Made by a program: the position numbers and the translations under genes. The notes beneath the pieces are model-generated. The model saw nothing but the letters and a program-made list of their open reading frames with translations. It was not told the origin of the DNA and did not search any database. Below are positions 724 through 8,960 of a stretch of 9,105 bases of DNA, one piece after another (the stretch's first letter is position 1; each line of letters starts with the position of its first letter). The DNA is from Naegleria gruberi (lineage: Eukaryota): NCBI GenBank assembly GCA_000004985.1, contig GG739047.1. One strand, 5' to 3'.

Positions 724-753
724 GAGAAAGTAAAAATAAACAATCCTGTTTTT
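724..753. repeat. Left terminal inverted repeat (gagaaagtaaaaataaacaatcctgttttt)
   Basis: It is the exact reverse complement of 2992-3021, 30/30. One more complementary base pair, 723/3022, would make it 31. Confidence 0.85.
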
Positions 754-761
754 AATTTCCG

Positions 762-777
762 GGTTAACATGTTAACC
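762..777. promoter_or_regulatory. 16-bp perfect palindrome ggttaacatgttaacc just inside the left TIR
   Basis: The sequence is self-complementary: two GTTAAC half-sites around an ACATGT core. It lies 8 bp internal to the TIR and directly abuts the TATAAAAG box. Function unknown. It could be a transposase or transcription-factor binding site. Confidence 0.4.
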
Positions 778-785
778 TATAAAAG
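778..785 (+). promoter_or_regulatory. TATA box (TATAAAAG) for the transposon ORF
   Basis: Canonical TATAAAAG lies about 110 bp upstream of the first ATG (896), on the same strand as the ORF. Confidence 0.4.
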
Positions 786-895
786 CGGCTCGAAATTACT
801 GAATTTTAAGAAATGGAACGGTAGCCTAACGGTAATGTTTCGTATCATTTAAACACTGGTCTGAAGATCGAATCTTGTCGGCATCAATAAACAAA

Positions 896-2869
896 ATGCC
901 ATCTCAAAACAATGCAAAGTGCAGAACATTTGTTTGCGTTTGTGGAAGCAAGTGTAATTCAAGTCCAGCCAAGAGTAGACATATTAAAAAGTGCAATCAT
1001 TTTGCCAAAGCAAGAGAGTTTATTAATACTTCATATCCAGAGCTCTCTTTAAATAAATTAATACAACCAAACATTATTGAACCAATCATTAATGTTGTTA
1101 ACAATGATCCTCTAGAAGCATCCTATATCAAGATGGGAAGGGCTGTTGTTAAGTTAATCCAAGAACTTCCAATTACATCACCTCTTAGAAGACCAATGGT
1201 TGCCAAGATTTGTAAAACTGTAAGACCTAAAGATGCTGTTATCATCTTGAATTTCGATGAATCTACCATTAGAAAGGCCAAGAAAGAAAGTGATGATTTT
1301 GTATTGATGATGAAATCTAAACCAAATAGCACTAGAGAGAAAATCTCAGCCACTGATATTGATAGAATCCAGAAGTATTGGTATGATTCATGTCGTGTTT
1401 CATCTACTGATGTTTTGCAAGCAAAGAGGAAGAGTGCAACATCTGAGGCTGTTATTGTTTCAAAATATTGGCAAGACTCACCTACTTGTTGGATTTTCCA
1501 ACAATATGTGGACTTCAGTGAACACAACCAAATTCCCTATCACTCCATTGGTACATTTGTCAAATACAAACCAAATAATATTAGACCATCCAAGAAGTTA
1601 GAAGGTATTTGCCCAATCTGTAAAGATTTCAAGAACAACAAGGCCAAGTATGAAGAAGCTGACCAATTATTGAAACATTTCAAGCAGGAGCCAGAGTGTG
1701 ATTGTAATCATTGTCAGCATTATAGTGAAAACTCTCAAGTTGAATTAATAGCACTTCAAAGAAAGTATGAGAAACATCTACTTCACGCTCAGCTCATCGT
1801 AGATAAATCCAAATATTGGGAGAAGGCAAAGCAAGAATTAAAAGAAGACGAGTTGATCGTTGTGATGGATTTTGCAAGTGGTTGGGAGGTAATCGATAAA
1901 GCTGTAGAAACAACCAACGAGTTTTTTGAGAAACATTACATCAAAGACATGATTGTTGTTGTGGTTAGAAAGTTAGGTGGAGAATTTCATTACACTTACT
2001 TTGATTTGATCAATGACAACCATACTTCTGATCATCACTACGTCAGAGAAGCTTGGGATTACTTATTATCGTCCGAAGAAATATTCACCAACAAATCTAA
2101 AATATTTCTTTTCTCCGATGGTGGGCCTGCTCATTACAAGATGTGTAAGACTGTTGTTATGATTGGAGAGATGACAAGAAAATATGATATTAATATTGAG
2201 TACAACTTCTATCCATCACACCATGGCAAGGGTCTTTGTGATGCACACATAGGAGTAGGTAAAAAGTATATCAAGAACAAAGTAAAGAGTAGAGAAGTAG
2301 AGGTGGAATCAATTGATGACATTGAGATGTTACTCAAGCAGTTGAAAGGAACCAAGGTTATTCGTTTGGACAATATTAAAACCTTTGAAGATTATAATGT
2401 AGAAAACATTGACAAGGTTAGATCATTTCACCAATATACTTACGAATTCGATTCAGAGAACAATATGTCATTATTATGTAAGATATCTTATGAAGAAGAA
2501 TCGTCTGTCATCAAGAATGTTAATTTAATAACTAATTCTGGAGGAAAGCTCACACCCAATCACTGTCTATTTTGCAACAAAACAGGACACAATCATAGAT
2601 TGTGCAAATTATTAGACGAACAATATAAGAAAGAAGATTTCGATCCTTCAGATCATCAATTCTTATCTCGTGAAGACGAGTACCTACCAGATGGGGAGGA
2701 GAGTGAAAGCGATGAATTATTGTATGATTCAGATAGTGATTATGATAGTATTAGTGAATCAGAGAGTGAGTTAGATAATGTTAGTACATCAAGCAACGAA
2801 CAACTTACGGTTGGAAAGAGAGCAGGAAGAGGCAATAAATTAAATGCCATCATTAGCAGTTTGATGTAA
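896..2869 (+). CDS. Transposase-like protein, 657 aa, with DDE/RNase-H-like core carrying a C(2)H motif, zinc-binding clusters and a CCHC zinc knuckle
   Basis: A 1974-nt uninterrupted ORF in AT-rich DNA. The first ATG is at 896. The ORF-track start at 875 is a TTG. Candidate catalytic residues are D in LIVVMDFASGW (1868-1870) and D in IFLFSDGGPAHYK (2117-2119), 83 aa downstream. E-AW-YLL lies between them. A CDAH, i.e. C(2)H, motif follows 40 aa after the second D (2237-2248). An acidic run, SREVEVESIDDIEM, could hold the catalytic E. An N-terminal Cys/His cluster CVCGSKCNSSPAKSRHIKKCNH runs about 920-1000. A central cluster CPIC...CDCNHCQH runs about 1610-1725. A C-terminal CX2CX4HX4C zinc knuckle CLFCNKTGHNHRLC sits at 2564-2605. 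An acidic Ser/Asp/Glu tail follows at about 2672-2780. Confidence 0.75.
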   Translation: MPSQNNAKCRTFVCVCGSKCNSSPAKSRHIKKCNHFAKAREFINTSYPELSLNKLIQPNIIEPIINVVNNDPLEASYIKMGRAVVKLIQELPITSPLRRPMVAKICKTVRPKDAVIILNFDESTIRKAKKESDDFVLMMKSKPNSTREKISATDIDRIQKYWYDSCRVSSTDVLQAKRKSATSEAVIVSKYWQDSPTCWIFQQYVDFSEHNQIPYHSIGTFVKYKPNNIRPSKKLEGICPICKDFKNNKAKYEEADQLLKHFKQEPECDCNHCQHYSENSQVELIALQRKYEKHLLHAQLIVDKSKYWEKAKQELKEDELIVVMDFASGWEVIDKAVETTNEFFEKHYIKDMIVVVVRKLGGEFHYTYFDLINDNHTSDHHYVREAWDYLLSSEEIFTNKSKIFLFSDGGPAHYKMCKTVVMIGEMTRKYDINIEYNFYPSHHGKGLCDAHIGVGKKYIKNKVKSREVEVESIDDIEMLLKQLKGTKVIRLDNIKTFEDYNVENIDKVRSFHQYTYEFDSENNMSLLCKISYEEESSVIKNVNLITNSGGKLTPNHCLFCNKTGHNHRLCKLLDEQYKKEDFDPSDHQFLSREDEYLPDGEESESDELLYDSDSDYDSISESESELDNVSTSSNEQLTVGKRAGRGNKLNAIISSLM

Positions 2870-2982
2870 ACGTATTTTTTTTTAAAATTTTATTCATTAC
2901 AAAATTTTCAACAAATTTCCGTTCCAATTCTGGTGTTTTAAGGTGTGAAGAGCTTTTTCAAACACAGCCTCATTTTCTATTA

Positions 2983-2988
2983 AATAAA
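2983..2988 (+). terminator. Putative polyadenylation signal AATAAA for the transposon ORF
   Basis: AATAAA lies 114 bp after the TAA stop (2867-2869) and 4 bp before the right TIR. A T9 run is at 2873-2881. Confidence 0.3.
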
Positions 2989-2991
2989 GTG

Positions 2992-3021
2992 AAAAACAGG
3001 ATTGTTTATTTTTACTTTCTC
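2992..3021. repeat. Right terminal inverted repeat (aaaaacaggattgtttatttttactttctc)
   Basis: It is the exact reverse complement of 724-753. Confidence 0.85.
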
Positions 3022-3165
3022 TAAATTAAATTCCATCAAACAACATTAAATATTTGGAGAATTTTGATTCAACCAATGTTGAACATGAAGTAATTTATTA
3101 TATTATTAAGAAATTAAATTATTAATATTGTAAATTAAGAAATAAAATTATTAAATATTAAAAAA

Positions 3166-4012
3166 ATGTCTCGATTACAGGAAGCATCTTTACATAAAAC
3201 GCTCGGATCACAGATTATGCAACTCTTGGAAGGAAAAACAACAAATTCATCTTCCTATTCCTTTCAAACTCATCAAGTTAATTATGTATATGGATTGGAT
3301 AAGATTAAATCAATGGTTCCGAATGTAATTATAAACAAAAAGTATGACAATCAACAACAGATGAATGGAATGAGCAAATTACAAATTGAAAAGGAAGAAG
3401 TTTTTGCCAAGCCGGAAGTGATGAACATTCTCGATGATATTTTCAATGTAAAACTTCAAGGAAAATACAATAATAATATAACAGAATATGTTGCCCAGGA
3501 GGAGAAACATTCGTTGGGAGAAAAGAAACAAGTTGATGTGGAAGTAAAGCTGTTCGATGATGAGGATGAGGAACTAGTTGATAAACCTGCAATTTATGAT
3601 GAAAATCAAAAGGAAGTGAAAATTAAATTATTTGATGATATTGATGATGACGATGATGTTCCATTCAAGGATCAACTAAAGGAGAGACAAGTGCAAAAGG
3701 AAAAGTCAGGACACAAGAGAAAGAGAAAGGAAAAGAAATTTTCCTTCTTGGAAGATTCTGATGATGAGGATGAGGAACATGATAAATCCATTGCATTGAA
3801 TGATGAGGATGAGGAAAGTGATGAGGATGAAGATTTACTCAAGAATAAGGCTGCAGAGACTCACAACTTTATCAGCTCTACAAAGGTCAAGAAATCTGAA
3901 AAACCAAACAAGGTAGCCAAGAGACATAAGGAACAAAATGAGTGGAAACAAATTCAAACATTAATGAAGGAAAAGGATGAAAAAAAGAAAGATTCTTCTA
4001 AGGATTCAACAG
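3166..4012 (+). CDS. Acidic, lysine-rich low-complexity protein (possibly nuclear), 5' portion; truncated by the assembly gap
   Basis: ATG at 3166-3168 with a strongly A-rich upstream context (aaaaaATGtct). There are 282 codons with no stop up to the gap. Composition is D/E-rich runs alternating with K/R-rich runs (KRKRKEKK). Codon-level repeats are present. There is a very AT-rich promoter-like region at 3040-3165. Confidence 0.7.
3556..3834 (+). repeat. In-frame acidic codon repeats (GATGATGAGGATGAGGAA) within the 3166 gene
   Basis: Exact 18-mer at 3556-3573 and 3760-3777, and a 17/18 copy at 3799-3816. Each encodes DDEDEE. Also a duplicated peptide motif, VEVKLFDDEDEE (about 3538-3573) and VKIKLFDDIDDDDD (about 3617-3654). 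Confidence 0.8.
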
Positions 4013-7000
4013 NNNNNNNNNNNNNNNNNNNNNNNNNNNNNNNNNNNNNNNNNNNNNNNNNNNNNNNNNNNNNNNNNNNNNNNNNNNNNNNNNNNNNNNN
4101 NNNNNNNNNNNNNNNNNNNNNNNNNNNNNNNNNNNNNNNNNNNNNNNNNNNNNNNNNNNNNNNNNNNNNNNNNNNNNNNNNNNNNNNNNNNNNNNNNNNN
4201 NNNNNNNNNNNNNNNNNNNNNNNNNNNNNNNNNNNNNNNNNNNNNNNNNNNNNNNNNNNNNNNNNNNNNNNNNNNNNNNNNNNNNNNNNNNNNNNNNNNN
4301 NNNNNNNNNNNNNNNNNNNNNNNNNNNNNNNNNNNNNNNNNNNNNNNNNNNNNNNNNNNNNNNNNNNNNNNNNNNNNNNNNNNNNNNNNNNNNNNNNNNN
4401 NNNNNNNNNNNNNNNNNNNNNNNNNNNNNNNNNNNNNNNNNNNNNNNNNNNNNNNNNNNNNNNNNNNNNNNNNNNNNNNNNNNNNNNNNNNNNNNNNNNN
4501 NNNNNNNNNNNNNNNNNNNNNNNNNNNNNNNNNNNNNNNNNNNNNNNNNNNNNNNNNNNNNNNNNNNNNNNNNNNNNNNNNNNNNNNNNNNNNNNNNNNN
4601 NNNNNNNNNNNNNNNNNNNNNNNNNNNNNNNNNNNNNNNNNNNNNNNNNNNNNNNNNNNNNNNNNNNNNNNNNNNNNNNNNNNNNNNNNNNNNNNNNNNN
4701 NNNNNNNNNNNNNNNNNNNNNNNNNNNNNNNNNNNNNNNNNNNNNNNNNNNNNNNNNNNNNNNNNNNNNNNNNNNNNNNNNNNNNNNNNNNNNNNNNNNN
4801 NNNNNNNNNNNNNNNNNNNNNNNNNNNNNNNNNNNNNNNNNNNNNNNNNNNNNNNNNNNNNNNNNNNNNNNNNNNNNNNNNNNNNNNNNNNNNNNNNNNN
4901 NNNNNNNNNNNNNNNNNNNNNNNNNNNNNNNNNNNNNNNNNNNNNNNNNNNNNNNNNNNNNNNNNNNNNNNNNNNNNNNNNNNNNNNNNNNNNNNNNNNN
5001 NNNNNNNNNNNNNNNNNNNNNNNNNNNNNNNNNNNNNNNNNNNNNNNNNNNNNNNNNNNNNNNNNNNNNNNNNNNNNNNNNNNNNNNNNNNNNNNNNNNN
5101 NNNNNNNNNNNNNNNNNNNNNNNNNNNNNNNNNNNNNNNNNNNNNNNNNNNNNNNNNNNNNNNNNNNNNNNNNNNNNNNNNNNNNNNNNNNNNNNNNNNN
5201 NNNNNNNNNNNNNNNNNNNNNNNNNNNNNNNNNNNNNNNNNNNNNNNNNNNNNNNNNNNNNNNNNNNNNNNNNNNNNNNNNNNNNNNNNNNNNNNNNNNN
5301 NNNNNNNNNNNNNNNNNNNNNNNNNNNNNNNNNNNNNNNNNNNNNNNNNNNNNNNNNNNNNNNNNNNNNNNNNNNNNNNNNNNNNNNNNNNNNNNNNNNN
5401 NNNNNNNNNNNNNNNNNNNNNNNNNNNNNNNNNNNNNNNNNNNNNNNNNNNNNNNNNNNNNNNNNNNNNNNNNNNNNNNNNNNNNNNNNNNNNNNNNNNN
5501 NNNNNNNNNNNNNNNNNNNNNNNNNNNNNNNNNNNNNNNNNNNNNNNNNNNNNNNNNNNNNNNNNNNNNNNNNNNNNNNNNNNNNNNNNNNNNNNNNNNN
5601 NNNNNNNNNNNNNNNNNNNNNNNNNNNNNNNNNNNNNNNNNNNNNNNNNNNNNNNNNNNNNNNNNNNNNNNNNNNNNNNNNNNNNNNNNNNNNNNNNNNN
5701 NNNNNNNNNNNNNNNNNNNNNNNNNNNNNNNNNNNNNNNNNNNNNNNNNNNNNNNNNNNNNNNNNNNNNNNNNNNNNNNNNNNNNNNNNNNNNNNNNNNN
5801 NNNNNNNNNNNNNNNNNNNNNNNNNNNNNNNNNNNNNNNNNNNNNNNNNNNNNNNNNNNNNNNNNNNNNNNNNNNNNNNNNNNNNNNNNNNNNNNNNNNN
5901 NNNNNNNNNNNNNNNNNNNNNNNNNNNNNNNNNNNNNNNNNNNNNNNNNNNNNNNNNNNNNNNNNNNNNNNNNNNNNNNNNNNNNNNNNNNNNNNNNNNN
6001 NNNNNNNNNNNNNNNNNNNNNNNNNNNNNNNNNNNNNNNNNNNNNNNNNNNNNNNNNNNNNNNNNNNNNNNNNNNNNNNNNNNNNNNNNNNNNNNNNNNN
6101 NNNNNNNNNNNNNNNNNNNNNNNNNNNNNNNNNNNNNNNNNNNNNNNNNNNNNNNNNNNNNNNNNNNNNNNNNNNNNNNNNNNNNNNNNNNNNNNNNNNN
6201 NNNNNNNNNNNNNNNNNNNNNNNNNNNNNNNNNNNNNNNNNNNNNNNNNNNNNNNNNNNNNNNNNNNNNNNNNNNNNNNNNNNNNNNNNNNNNNNNNNNN
6301 NNNNNNNNNNNNNNNNNNNNNNNNNNNNNNNNNNNNNNNNNNNNNNNNNNNNNNNNNNNNNNNNNNNNNNNNNNNNNNNNNNNNNNNNNNNNNNNNNNNN
6401 NNNNNNNNNNNNNNNNNNNNNNNNNNNNNNNNNNNNNNNNNNNNNNNNNNNNNNNNNNNNNNNNNNNNNNNNNNNNNNNNNNNNNNNNNNNNNNNNNNNN
6501 NNNNNNNNNNNNNNNNNNNNNNNNNNNNNNNNNNNNNNNNNNNNNNNNNNNNNNNNNNNNNNNNNNNNNNNNNNNNNNNNNNNNNNNNNNNNNNNNNNNN
6601 NNNNNNNNNNNNNNNNNNNNNNNNNNNNNNNNNNNNNNNNNNNNNNNNNNNNNNNNNNNNNNNNNNNNNNNNNNNNNNNNNNNNNNNNNNNNNNNNNNNN
6701 NNNNNNNNNNNNNNNNNNNNNNNNNNNNNNNNNNNNNNNNNNNNNNNNNNNNNNNNNNNNNNNNNNNNNNNNNNNNNNNNNNNNNNNNNNNNNNNNNNNN
6801 NNNNNNNNNNNNNNNNNNNNNNNNNNNNNNNNNNNNNNNNNNNNNNNNNNNNNNNNNNNNNNNNNNNNNNNNNNNNNNNNNNNNNNNNNNNNNNNNNNNN
6901 NNNNNNNNNNNNNNNNNNNNNNNNNNNNNNNNNNNNNNNNNNNNNNNNNNNNNNNNNNNNNNNNNNNNNNNNNNNNNNNNNNNNNNNNNNNNNNNNNNNN

Positions 7001-8041
7001 NNNNNNNNNNNNNNNNNNNNNNNNNNNNNNNNNNNNNNNNNNNNNNNNNNNNNNNNNNNNNNNNNNNNNNNNNNNNNNNNNNNNNNNNNNNNNNNNNNNN
7101 NNNNNNNNNNNNNNNNNNNNNNNNNNNNNNNNNNNNNNNNNNNNNNNNNNNNNNNNNNNNNNNNNNNNNNNNNNNNNNNNNNNNNNNNNNNNNNNNNNNN
7201 NNNNNNNNNNNNNNNNNNNNNNNNNNNNNNNNNNNNNNNNNNNNNNNNNNNNNNNNNNNNNNNNNNNNNNNNNNNNNNNNNNNNNNNNNNNNNNNNNNNN
7301 NNNNNNNNNNNNNNNNNNNNNNNNNNNNNNNNNNNNNNNNNNNNNNNNNNNNNNNNNNNNNNNNNNNNNNNNNNNNNNNNNNNNNNNNNNNNNNNNNNNN
7401 NNNNNNNNNNNNNNNNNNNNNNNNNNNNNNNNNNNNNNNNNNNNNNNNNNNNNNNNNNNNNNNNNNNNNNNNNNNNNNNNNNNNNNNNNNNNNNNNNNNN
7501 NNNNNNNNNNNNNNNNNNNNNNNNNNNNNNNNNNNNNNNNNNNNNNNNNNNNNNNNNNNNNNNNNNNNNNNNNNNNNNNNNNNNNNNNNNNNNNNNNNNN
7601 NNNNNNNNNNNNNNNNNNNNNNNNNNNNNNNNNNNNNNNNNNNNNNNNNNNNNNNNNNNNNNNNNNNNNNNNNNNNNNNNNNNNNNNNNNNNNNNNNNNN
7701 NNNNNNNNNNNNNNNNNNNNNNNNNNNNNNNNNNNNNNNNNNNNNNNNNNNNNNNNNNNNNNNNNNNNNNNNNNNNNNNNNNNNNNNNNNNNNNNNNNNN
7801 NNNNNNNNNNNNNNNNNNNNNNNNNNNNNNNNNNNNNNNNNNNNNNNNNNNNNNNNNNNNNNNNNNNNNNNNNNNNNNNNNNNNNNNNNNNNNNNNNNNN
7901 NNNNNNNNNNNNNNNNNNNNNNNNNNNNNNNNNNNNNNNNNNNNNNNNNNNNNNNNNNNNNNNNNNNNNNNNNNNNNNNNNNNNNNNNNNNNNNNNNNNN
8001 NNNNNNNNNNNNNNNNNNNNNNNNNNNNNNNNNNNNNNNNN
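4013..8041. other. Assembly gap (4,029 N)
   Basis: Contiguous run of n. The ORFs at 3166..8076, 3977..8047 and 4006..8187(-) across it are X-translation artefacts. Confidence 1.
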
Positions 8042-8318: not shown

Positions 8319-8960
8319 ATGGAGTTGTTAGTGGTAACTCTACTGAGAATAGCCCTCAAATTGGGGTTAATAGTAATTGATTTTGTATCATGCCTCTTTT
8401 ATTCACCAGCATTATTATTACTCACATTGGCATTGGATATTTCACATAATTATGGAAGTAGAAAGCGTTTATACTCAGACTTTAATAATGGTGTATTGTT
8501 GATCTATTATTTAATGTTTCCAGTCATGTATCCGATCGTTACACTTGCAGTACCATCCATTGTTTTGTATCCAATATTTGCATTCTATGAAACTTATGCT
8601 CTTTACATTTCGGAAAATTCTACAGGTTTTTGGAGTATGATGATTTCATTGACAGTCACCTTCTTGTCCATGTTGGCCATGTCAATTAGAGCTTTCATTG
8701 TGTGGGATGACAAGATTGGAAGAAGCTATCGTAATAGTAATGTAGATATCTTCTCTGATTGGGGTGAATTCCAAATACGTTTGCCTAAACATTTATTTTC
8801 TATTGTAATGTTGGTAAATCCTGTCAGATTCATATACTTTTTAAAACAAGGATACAAATCTCAAACATTATCTGCATTTACTGATTTAATGGCTGATTAT
8901 ACTGTTAAAGCAGTGTTAGATTATTTATGCTTGCCATTTTGTGTATGTATTATTGTTTGA
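8319..8960 (+). CDS. Hypothetical multi-pass membrane protein (213 aa as a single ORF; may continue through a downstream intron)
   Basis: ATG at 8319. It has about 6 hydrophobic helix-length segments, for example LLVVTLLRIALKLGLIVIDFVSCLF, GVLLIYYLMFPVMYPIVTLAV and FWSMMISLTVTFLSMLAMSIRAFIVW. No homology is recognisable by eye. Coding status rests on ORF length in AT-rich DNA. Confidence 0.45.
   Translation: MELLVVTLLRIALKLGLIVIDFVSCLFYSPALLLLTLALDISHNYGSRKRLYSDFNNGVLLIYYLMFPVMYPIVTLAVPSIVLYPIFAFYETYALYISENSTGFWSMMISLTVTFLSMLAMSIRAFIVWDDKIGRSYRNSNVDIFSDWGEFQIRLPKHLFSIVMLVNPVRFIYFLKQGYKSQTLSAFTDLMADYTVKAVLDYLCLPFCVCIIV

Follow-up and report, generated by a model that had tools for sequence, protein, structure and literature searches.

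The stretch of DNA analysed here, referred to as the window, is a 9,105-bp scaffold of the heterolobosean Naegleria gruberi (contig GG739047.1) with a GC content of about 35%, and it harbours what is very probably an intact autonomous Sola2 transposon (Sola superfamily), whose transposase possesses an uninterrupted RNase H-like core with the triad D325/D408/D449. The corresponding open reading frame (ORF) extends from position 875 to 2869 on the plus strand; counted from its first ATG at position 896, the intronless transposase gene (896-2869) comprises 657 codons plus a stop, and its translation is identical to an NCBI entry named 'predicted protein [Naegleria gruberi]'. An inverted-repeat search of the window revealed a 40-nt inverted repeat on either side of the ORF (719-758 and 2987-3026, 93% complementary), which includes a perfect stretch of 31 nt (723-753 and 3022-2992). 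With the termini taken as 5'-GAG...CTC-3', the transposon spans positions 724-3021, that is 2,298 bp, and carries terminal inverted repeats (TIRs) of 35 bp with 30 perfect nucleotides. The left TIR (724-758, plus strand) reads 5'-GAGAAAGTAAAAATAAACAATCCTGTTTTTAATTT, the first 30 nt of which match the right end perfectly, while the right TIR (2987-3021, minus strand) terminates on the plus strand in ...CTTTCTC-3'. Directly outside the left and right termini lies the trinucleotide TAA (721-723 and 3022-3024, plus strand), a candidate target-site duplication. An earlier description of this locus, made from the sequence alone and termed the original prediction hereafter, had recognised the motifs of the ORF at 896-2869 but overlooked the repeat that flanks it.

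Direct reading of the translation located all of these motifs, with the spacings that had been described. DFASGW occupies amino acids (aa) 325-330 (positions 1868-1885), REAWDYLL aa 384-391 and SDGG aa 407-410, so that D408 is 83 residues past D325; CDAH follows at aa 448-451, C448 being 40 residues past D408, and is succeeded by SREVEVESIDDIEM at aa 465-478. Upstream of this region, CPIC is found at aa 239-242 and CDCNHCQH at aa 268-275, while the C-terminal portion contains CLFCNKTGHNHRLC (aa 557-570), which has the spacing CX2CX4HX4C, and DSDSDYDSISESESE (aa 611-625), part of a tail that consists to 45% of Asp, Glu and Ser. Since the ORF comprises 657 codons in DNA of 35% GC and 827 relatives were found for it in the database at E<=1e-3, it is far beyond what chance would produce, and several of the residues singled out in the original prediction are invariant across about 150 of these relatives.

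The size of the protein family depends strongly on how it is searched for. A word-indexed protein search returned only two to four relatives, whereas an exhaustive HMMER search yielded 827 representatives at E<=1e-3, of which 133 reached E<=1e-10, with the matches concentrated around aa 280-520; hence, the apparent rarity of the family is an artefact of sensitivity. For fast-evolving transposases, an indexed search thus badly understates family size. The named relatives belong to the distant protists Phalansterium, Pompholyxophrys and Lithocolla and to one beetle, and the only paralog found in N. gruberi (P0002) is 63% identical. Searches of Pfam, NCBIfam and PDB sequences with the single protein gave no match, none of 41 family members matched Pfam, and the family profile likewise found nothing among PDB sequences. 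The suspicion that the arrangement falls outside the standard families was therefore justified insofar as Pfam holds no model for the window protein or its family.

The RNase H-like domains of Sola, Zator, Kolobok, Novosib, Academ and Dada are without a Pfam counterpart (PMC5751038), a statement that defined the set of candidate superfamilies. Among these, a hidden Markov model (HMM) of the family scored 113 bits (E 7.5e-31) against Sola2-1_HM and 57.6 bits against the Sola2 element of S. purpuratus, in contrast to 26.6 bits against Sola3, 18.2 bits against Sola1 and no score against Zator and Kolobok. The window protein on its own still matched the core of Sola2-1_HM with 37 bits (E 7e-8), and BLASTP aligned it to a Hydra-like protein (P0093) over aa 282-561 with 24% identity (E 2e-19). 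Moreover, in reciprocal searches the retrieved relatives were matched by Sola2 references only. Sola1 and Sola3 display a weakly similar pattern of core motifs, fitting a single superfamily, yet their scores are far lower and the reciprocal searches find no match to them. The family is hence Sola2, and its assignment to the clade of hAT, MULE, P and Kolobok, as proposed originally, does not hold. The Sola2 group of the Sola superfamily, with the type element Sola2-1_HM of Hydra, was reportedly described by Bao, Jurka, Kapitonov and Jurka in 2009 (Mol Biol Evol 26:983), who are also said to have stated a DDD catalytic triad.

Such a triad on an RNase H-like fold, as stated for Sola2, is present in the window protein. 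The catalytic core covers aa 319-464 (1850-2287, plus strand) and contains D325 (1868-1870), D408 (2117-2119) and D449 (2240-2242). In an alignment of about 150 relatives, with denominators varying by column, D325 is conserved in 137/138 sequences and the adjacent F326 in 135/138, D408 in all 152 and D449 in all 151, while C448 is found in 127/151 and H451 in 105/149; in addition, H443 (150/152) and G444 (145/152) are nearly invariant. In the predicted structure, beta1 ends with D325 and beta4 with D408, while D449 is situated at the N-terminus of the helix following beta5, 41 residues past D408; the stretch from D408 to D449 harbours no insertion domain. This spacing of 41 recurs in 88 of 133 sequences, the range being 37-44, and together with the residue conservation it identifies a compact DDD transposase of the DD41D type. 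Predicted structure and conservation thus bear out the original notion of a transposase with an RNase H-like core and D325 and D408 as its first two catalytic residues. The third residue, on the contrary, is D449 and not the expected Glu: neither E385 of the REAWDYLL block, which had been likened to MULE and IS256 enzymes, nor the Glu residues of SREVEVESIDDIEM, among which a catalytic Glu had been suspected, are conserved among the relatives, and no conserved Glu whatsoever follows D408. Likewise, the CDAH motif, formerly taken as a C(2)H signature, holds the third catalytic Asp, and the canonical Sola2 block HGKSPCDGLGG is devoid of the His.

Compared with known Sola2 elements, the core is homologous from end to end, as evident from the blocks GDFAE / hhhDF, F(S/T)DG..(H/Q)(Y/F)K and NFF..SHGK..CD, and the DDD triad, the single transposase ORF and the lack of a Pfam model are further shared traits, as are short TIRs running from 5'-GAG to CTC-3' within AT-rich flanks. 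Sola2 elements of Dictyostelium and Polysphondylium feature TIRs of 12-21 bp, AT-rich 4-bp duplications and the termini GAGC.../...GCTC or GAAT.../...GTTC, and Sola2 elements are known to have captured Fanzor genes (PMC3627910). The termini of the window element match those of the Dictyostelium DFa families (5'-GAGC.../...GCTC-3'), while it differs from Sola2 by its heterolobosean host, by its compactness (2.3 kb and 657 aa versus 888 aa for DFa-2), by the lack of Fanzor or any other passenger gene and by its extra modules: a Cys cluster near the N-terminus, an insert rich in Cys and, at the C-terminus, a knuckle and an acidic tail of Ser, Asp and Glu. Searches for tRNA and Rfam matches within the element gave none.

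These modules account for what the original prediction had called an unusual domain mix. The N-terminal Cys/His cluster (aa 9-35, 920-1000, plus strand; C9/C14/C16/C20/H29/C33/H35), a candidate DNA-binding zinc finger, is seen solely in the Naegleria copies and is modelled with low confidence. A second candidate zinc-binding element (1610-1786, plus strand) extends from a family-wide CxxC, with C239 in 105/105 and C242 in 104/107 sequences, to the invariant H297 (126/126), which precedes D325 by 28 residues in most members; it packs ahead of the catalytic core, and its variable insert, bearing CDCNHCQH here, has at least three Cys residues in only 28/104 members. The CX2CX4HX4C knuckle (aa 557-570, 2564-2605, plus strand) was found in nine of the 84 relatives long enough to hold it, always 104-136 residues past the third Asp, and no other relatives are as close to the Naegleria protein as these nine. 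The Gag-type spacing noticed originally is therefore present and kept in nine relatives, yet the Pfam model zf-CCHC (PF00098) did not match it, even with the isolated segment at E<=10. The C-terminal tail (aa 576-657, 2621-2866, plus strand; 45% D/E/S) is predicted to be disordered, with a predicted local distance difference test (pLDDT) below 40, and its acidic character is retained in both homologs. The modules are thus real, but knuckle, N-terminal cluster, Cys-rich insert and tail are additions that particular lineages have made to a standard Sola2 core.

That the ORF and its repeats form one mobile unit is indicated by a homolog (P0003) in Willaertia magna (locus L001, GCA_041937235.1). 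Nucleotide similarity between the two loci is limited to the element, amounting to 73.6% over window positions 1151-3024 and to 89% over the terminal 64 bp, and the flanks lack similarity at the protein level, which argues for a mobile unit rather than a syntenic host locus. The Willaertia terminus recurs inverted at the other end of that copy; the left TIR is kept at both Willaertia ends, and the alignment of all four ends yields the common terminus 5'-GAGAAA(GT/AC)AAAAATAAACAATCCTG. Over 580 aligned codons, the ratio of nonsynonymous to synonymous substitution (dN/dS) is 0.09 with saturated synonymous sites (pS 0.71), and for this reason the 89% identity of the ends reflects constraint and not recency. 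The Willaertia copy itself is disrupted by two frameshifts, and its N-terminus has diverged. The protein annotated there, ABK040_005658 (1,135 aa; L001 10001-14079), is a chimera of this frameshifted transposase remnant and a downstream gene with DUF4116 repeats, the annotated 'introns' having been placed across the frameshifts.

A further conserved site lies close to the inner edge of the left TIR and precedes the ATG by about 110 nt (762-785, plus strand). Here, 16 bp form a perfect palindrome, GGTTAACATGTTAACC (762-777), and the TATA box TATAAAAG (778-785) comes next; the site probably acts as a promoter and/or a transposase-binding site. In Willaertia (L001 ~9665-9690), the palindrome reads GGTTTACATGTAAACC and is likewise followed by TATAAA. 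The changes relative to the window are symmetric, and this preservation of the palindrome between the genera, GGTTAACATGTTAACC versus GGTTTACATGTAAACC, suggests a candidate site for a dimeric protein.

One observation is at odds with published Sola2 elements: the apparent duplication is TAA, i.e. 3 bp, as opposed to the 4 bp published for Sola2, a comparison that is based on two loci only. TAA lies directly outside each end in both Naegleria and Willaertia and is perfect at both loci, whereas the 4-bp flanks differ between left and right (TTAA/TAAA in Naegleria, TTAA/TAAG in Willaertia; two insertions). A separate, unnamed Sola-like group, sister to Sola2 and characterised by 3-bp TAA duplications and a C-terminal CCHC knuckle, would account for the arrangement TAA-element-TAA without a matching 4-bp window, for the modest similarity of the window protein alone (37 bits to the Sola2-1_HM core, 24% identity to P0093) and for the knuckle as the mark of a distinct sub-clade. 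Nevertheless, we regard such a group as improbable, given that the relatives form a continuum, that the Sola2 type element receives 113 bits from a single HMM of these relatives and that two insertions cannot fix the length of the duplication, TAA being also explicable by target preference plus decay of the fourth base. Somewhat less doubtful, though still unlikely, is the tentative idea that the Naegleria and Willaertia elements and their nearest relatives make up a distinct sub-lineage within Sola2 that uses a 3-bp TAA target and has gained the CCHC knuckle and the acidic tail. If so, knuckle and tail might serve, for example, nucleic-acid or chromatin targeting, and for a first biochemical and structural study of the superfamily no Sola2 candidate would be more compact than the intact 2.3-kb element.

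The superfamilies considered originally and the possibility of a host function have to be weighed against the Sola2 assignment as well. The C/DxxH clade encompasses hAT, MuDR/MULE, P, Kolobok and Dada (PMC9587614, PMC10045372), and in a transposase of this clade CDAH would be the C(2)H signature, while a Glu further downstream, for instance in SREVEVESIDDIEM, would complete a DDE triad. C448-x-x-H451 indeed fits the C(2)H spacing just past beta5, and Hermes was among the weak matches of a Foldseek search of the PDB, which gave no match at E<=1e-3. Kolobok, which carries the C/DxxH motif and is represented by Kolobok_1_NaeGru in Data S5 of the same study, occurs in Naegleria with TTAA duplications and 5'-RR...YY-3' termini (PMC9587614). 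Because the window element combines a TTAA-like left flank with RR...YY termini (GA...TC; TTAA|GA on the left, ...TC|TAAA on the right, TAAG in Willaertia) in a host genus known to contain Kolobok, this superfamily was weighed seriously, the more so as Kolobok_1_NaeGru and Kolobok_2_NaeGru share with the window protein a CxxH-spaced motif past the second Asp. However, neither HMM nor phmmer searches matched the window protein to Kolobok_1_NaeGru or Kolobok_1_CGi, the Kolobok blocks DARYSSRR / HDKDS / DPNH / NESIHS are unrelated to it, and it is devoid of a terminal catalytic Glu. For hAT, MULE (MuDR) and P, neither a family-profile match nor the insertion domain between beta5 and the Glu-bearing helix was found. 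With no conserved downstream Glu and no Kolobok, hAT or MULE match, membership of the C/DxxH clade retains scarcely any probability. The nearest solved folds are those of Tc1/mariner transposases (Mos1, Sleeping Beauty) and retroviral integrases, in which the RNase H-like core is likewise compact and uninterrupted and the helix directly after beta5 bears the third acidic residue, and the DD41D-type spacing recalls the DD34D...DD41D variants of mariner. Sequence similarity to these enzymes is undetectable, though, and the N-terminal architecture is unlike theirs; Tc1/mariner (ITm) was rejected, as only the fold is similar, no match to the Pfam models DDE_1, DDE_3 or Transposase_1 was obtained and the flanks show TAA instead of a TA duplication.

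Alternatively, the gene could be a domesticated descendant of a Sola2 transposase, immobile but retained for a role in the cell. Strong purifying selection (dN/dS 0.09), a low copy number with one 63%-identical paralog, homologs in two heterolobosean genera and the lineage-specific accessory modules, knuckle and acidic tail, would all be compatible with domestication. Yet the TIRs are intact, with 30 perfect nucleotides, and their conservation between genera greatly exceeds the neutral level, which is saturated; synteny between the two loci is lacking; the Willaertia copy bears two frameshifts as in a decaying transposon copy; and all three catalytic Asp residues are kept. Purifying selection is, moreover, also normal where transposases persist by transposition, and we therefore consider domestication highly improbable.

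Several observations concern related or neighbouring sequences. In the beetle Brassicogethes aeneus (chromosome OV121134.1, L002), a 900-aa intronless Sola2-family ORF lies within an intron of an FCH/SH3 host gene and is bracketed by inverted arms (L002 5860-5940 and 9030-9085) with repeated CACGG(G/A)ACTGAC motifs (CACGGGACTGAC), possibly sub-terminal repeats to which the transposase binds. For the closest relative with a knuckle (P0004), no clear TIRs were seen on its contig. On another contig (L003 1-5352, Logan SRR28285697), family member P0006 adjoins a run of small ORFs, one of them with a weak HNH_3 match, a context that could be viral or protist. A metagenome scan for further copies with a 24-nt terminus pattern gave only two matches (L004 652-675 and L005 324-347) and no additional copy; the two are single chance matches in one unrelated AT-rich coding region, present on two contigs in opposite orientations, and not a miniature inverted-repeat transposable element. 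Within the window, an ORF downstream of the transposon (3166-4012, plus strand) is rich in Lys, Glu and Asp, contains repeated GATGATGAGGATGAGGA units and enters a scaffold gap, a run of 4,029 N (4013-8041) that splits the window; a further N stands at position 2, and the listed ORFs of more than 1,300 aa across the run are artefacts of N translation. Beyond the gap, a 213-aa ORF (8319-8960, plus strand) is strongly hydrophobic and probably encodes a membrane protein. Neither of these two ORFs has a significant Pfam match.

For the Sola2 element, the analysis establishes family membership, fold, residue conservation and terminal repeats, as well as the persistence of these repeats at an unrelated locus of another genus. 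We infer that its transposase catalyses transposition, binds metal and zinc and recognises DNA, and that the element may still be mobile. By this scheme, the N-terminal and helical regions would recognise the 35-bp TIRs and perhaps also the sub-terminal palindrome, possibly aided by zinc bound at C239, C242 and H297. By analogy with other DDD/E enzymes of the same fold, the three Asp residues would coordinate two divalent metal ions, which would catalyse both the cutting of the DNA at the termini of the element and strand transfer into an AT-rich target. Such cut-and-paste transposition would leave a short duplication, TAA here, while the CCHC knuckle and the acidic tail would be accessories of the sub-lineage outside the catalytic machinery.

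In terms of classification, the element belongs to a known but poorly characterised group and is not a new kind of enzyme; it leaves the known diversity of transposases unchanged and will not surprise a transposon specialist. No report of Sola in Naegleria was found in the literature searched, which did not cover Repbase. Sola ranks among the least studied superfamilies of eukaryotic DNA transposons and is without a Pfam model; searches of the PDB by sequence and fold found no solved Sola structure, and to our knowledge no Sola biochemistry has been published. It is for this reason that its members are routinely labelled 'predicted protein' or, as in Willaertia, merged into chimeric gene models. 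The value of the finding thus lies in annotation and in a possible experimental model: the window provides a compact, apparently intact autonomous Sola2 element with sharply defined 35-bp ends and a confident core model, whose invariant residues D325, D408, D449, H443, C239, C242 and H297 offer themselves as targets for mutation.
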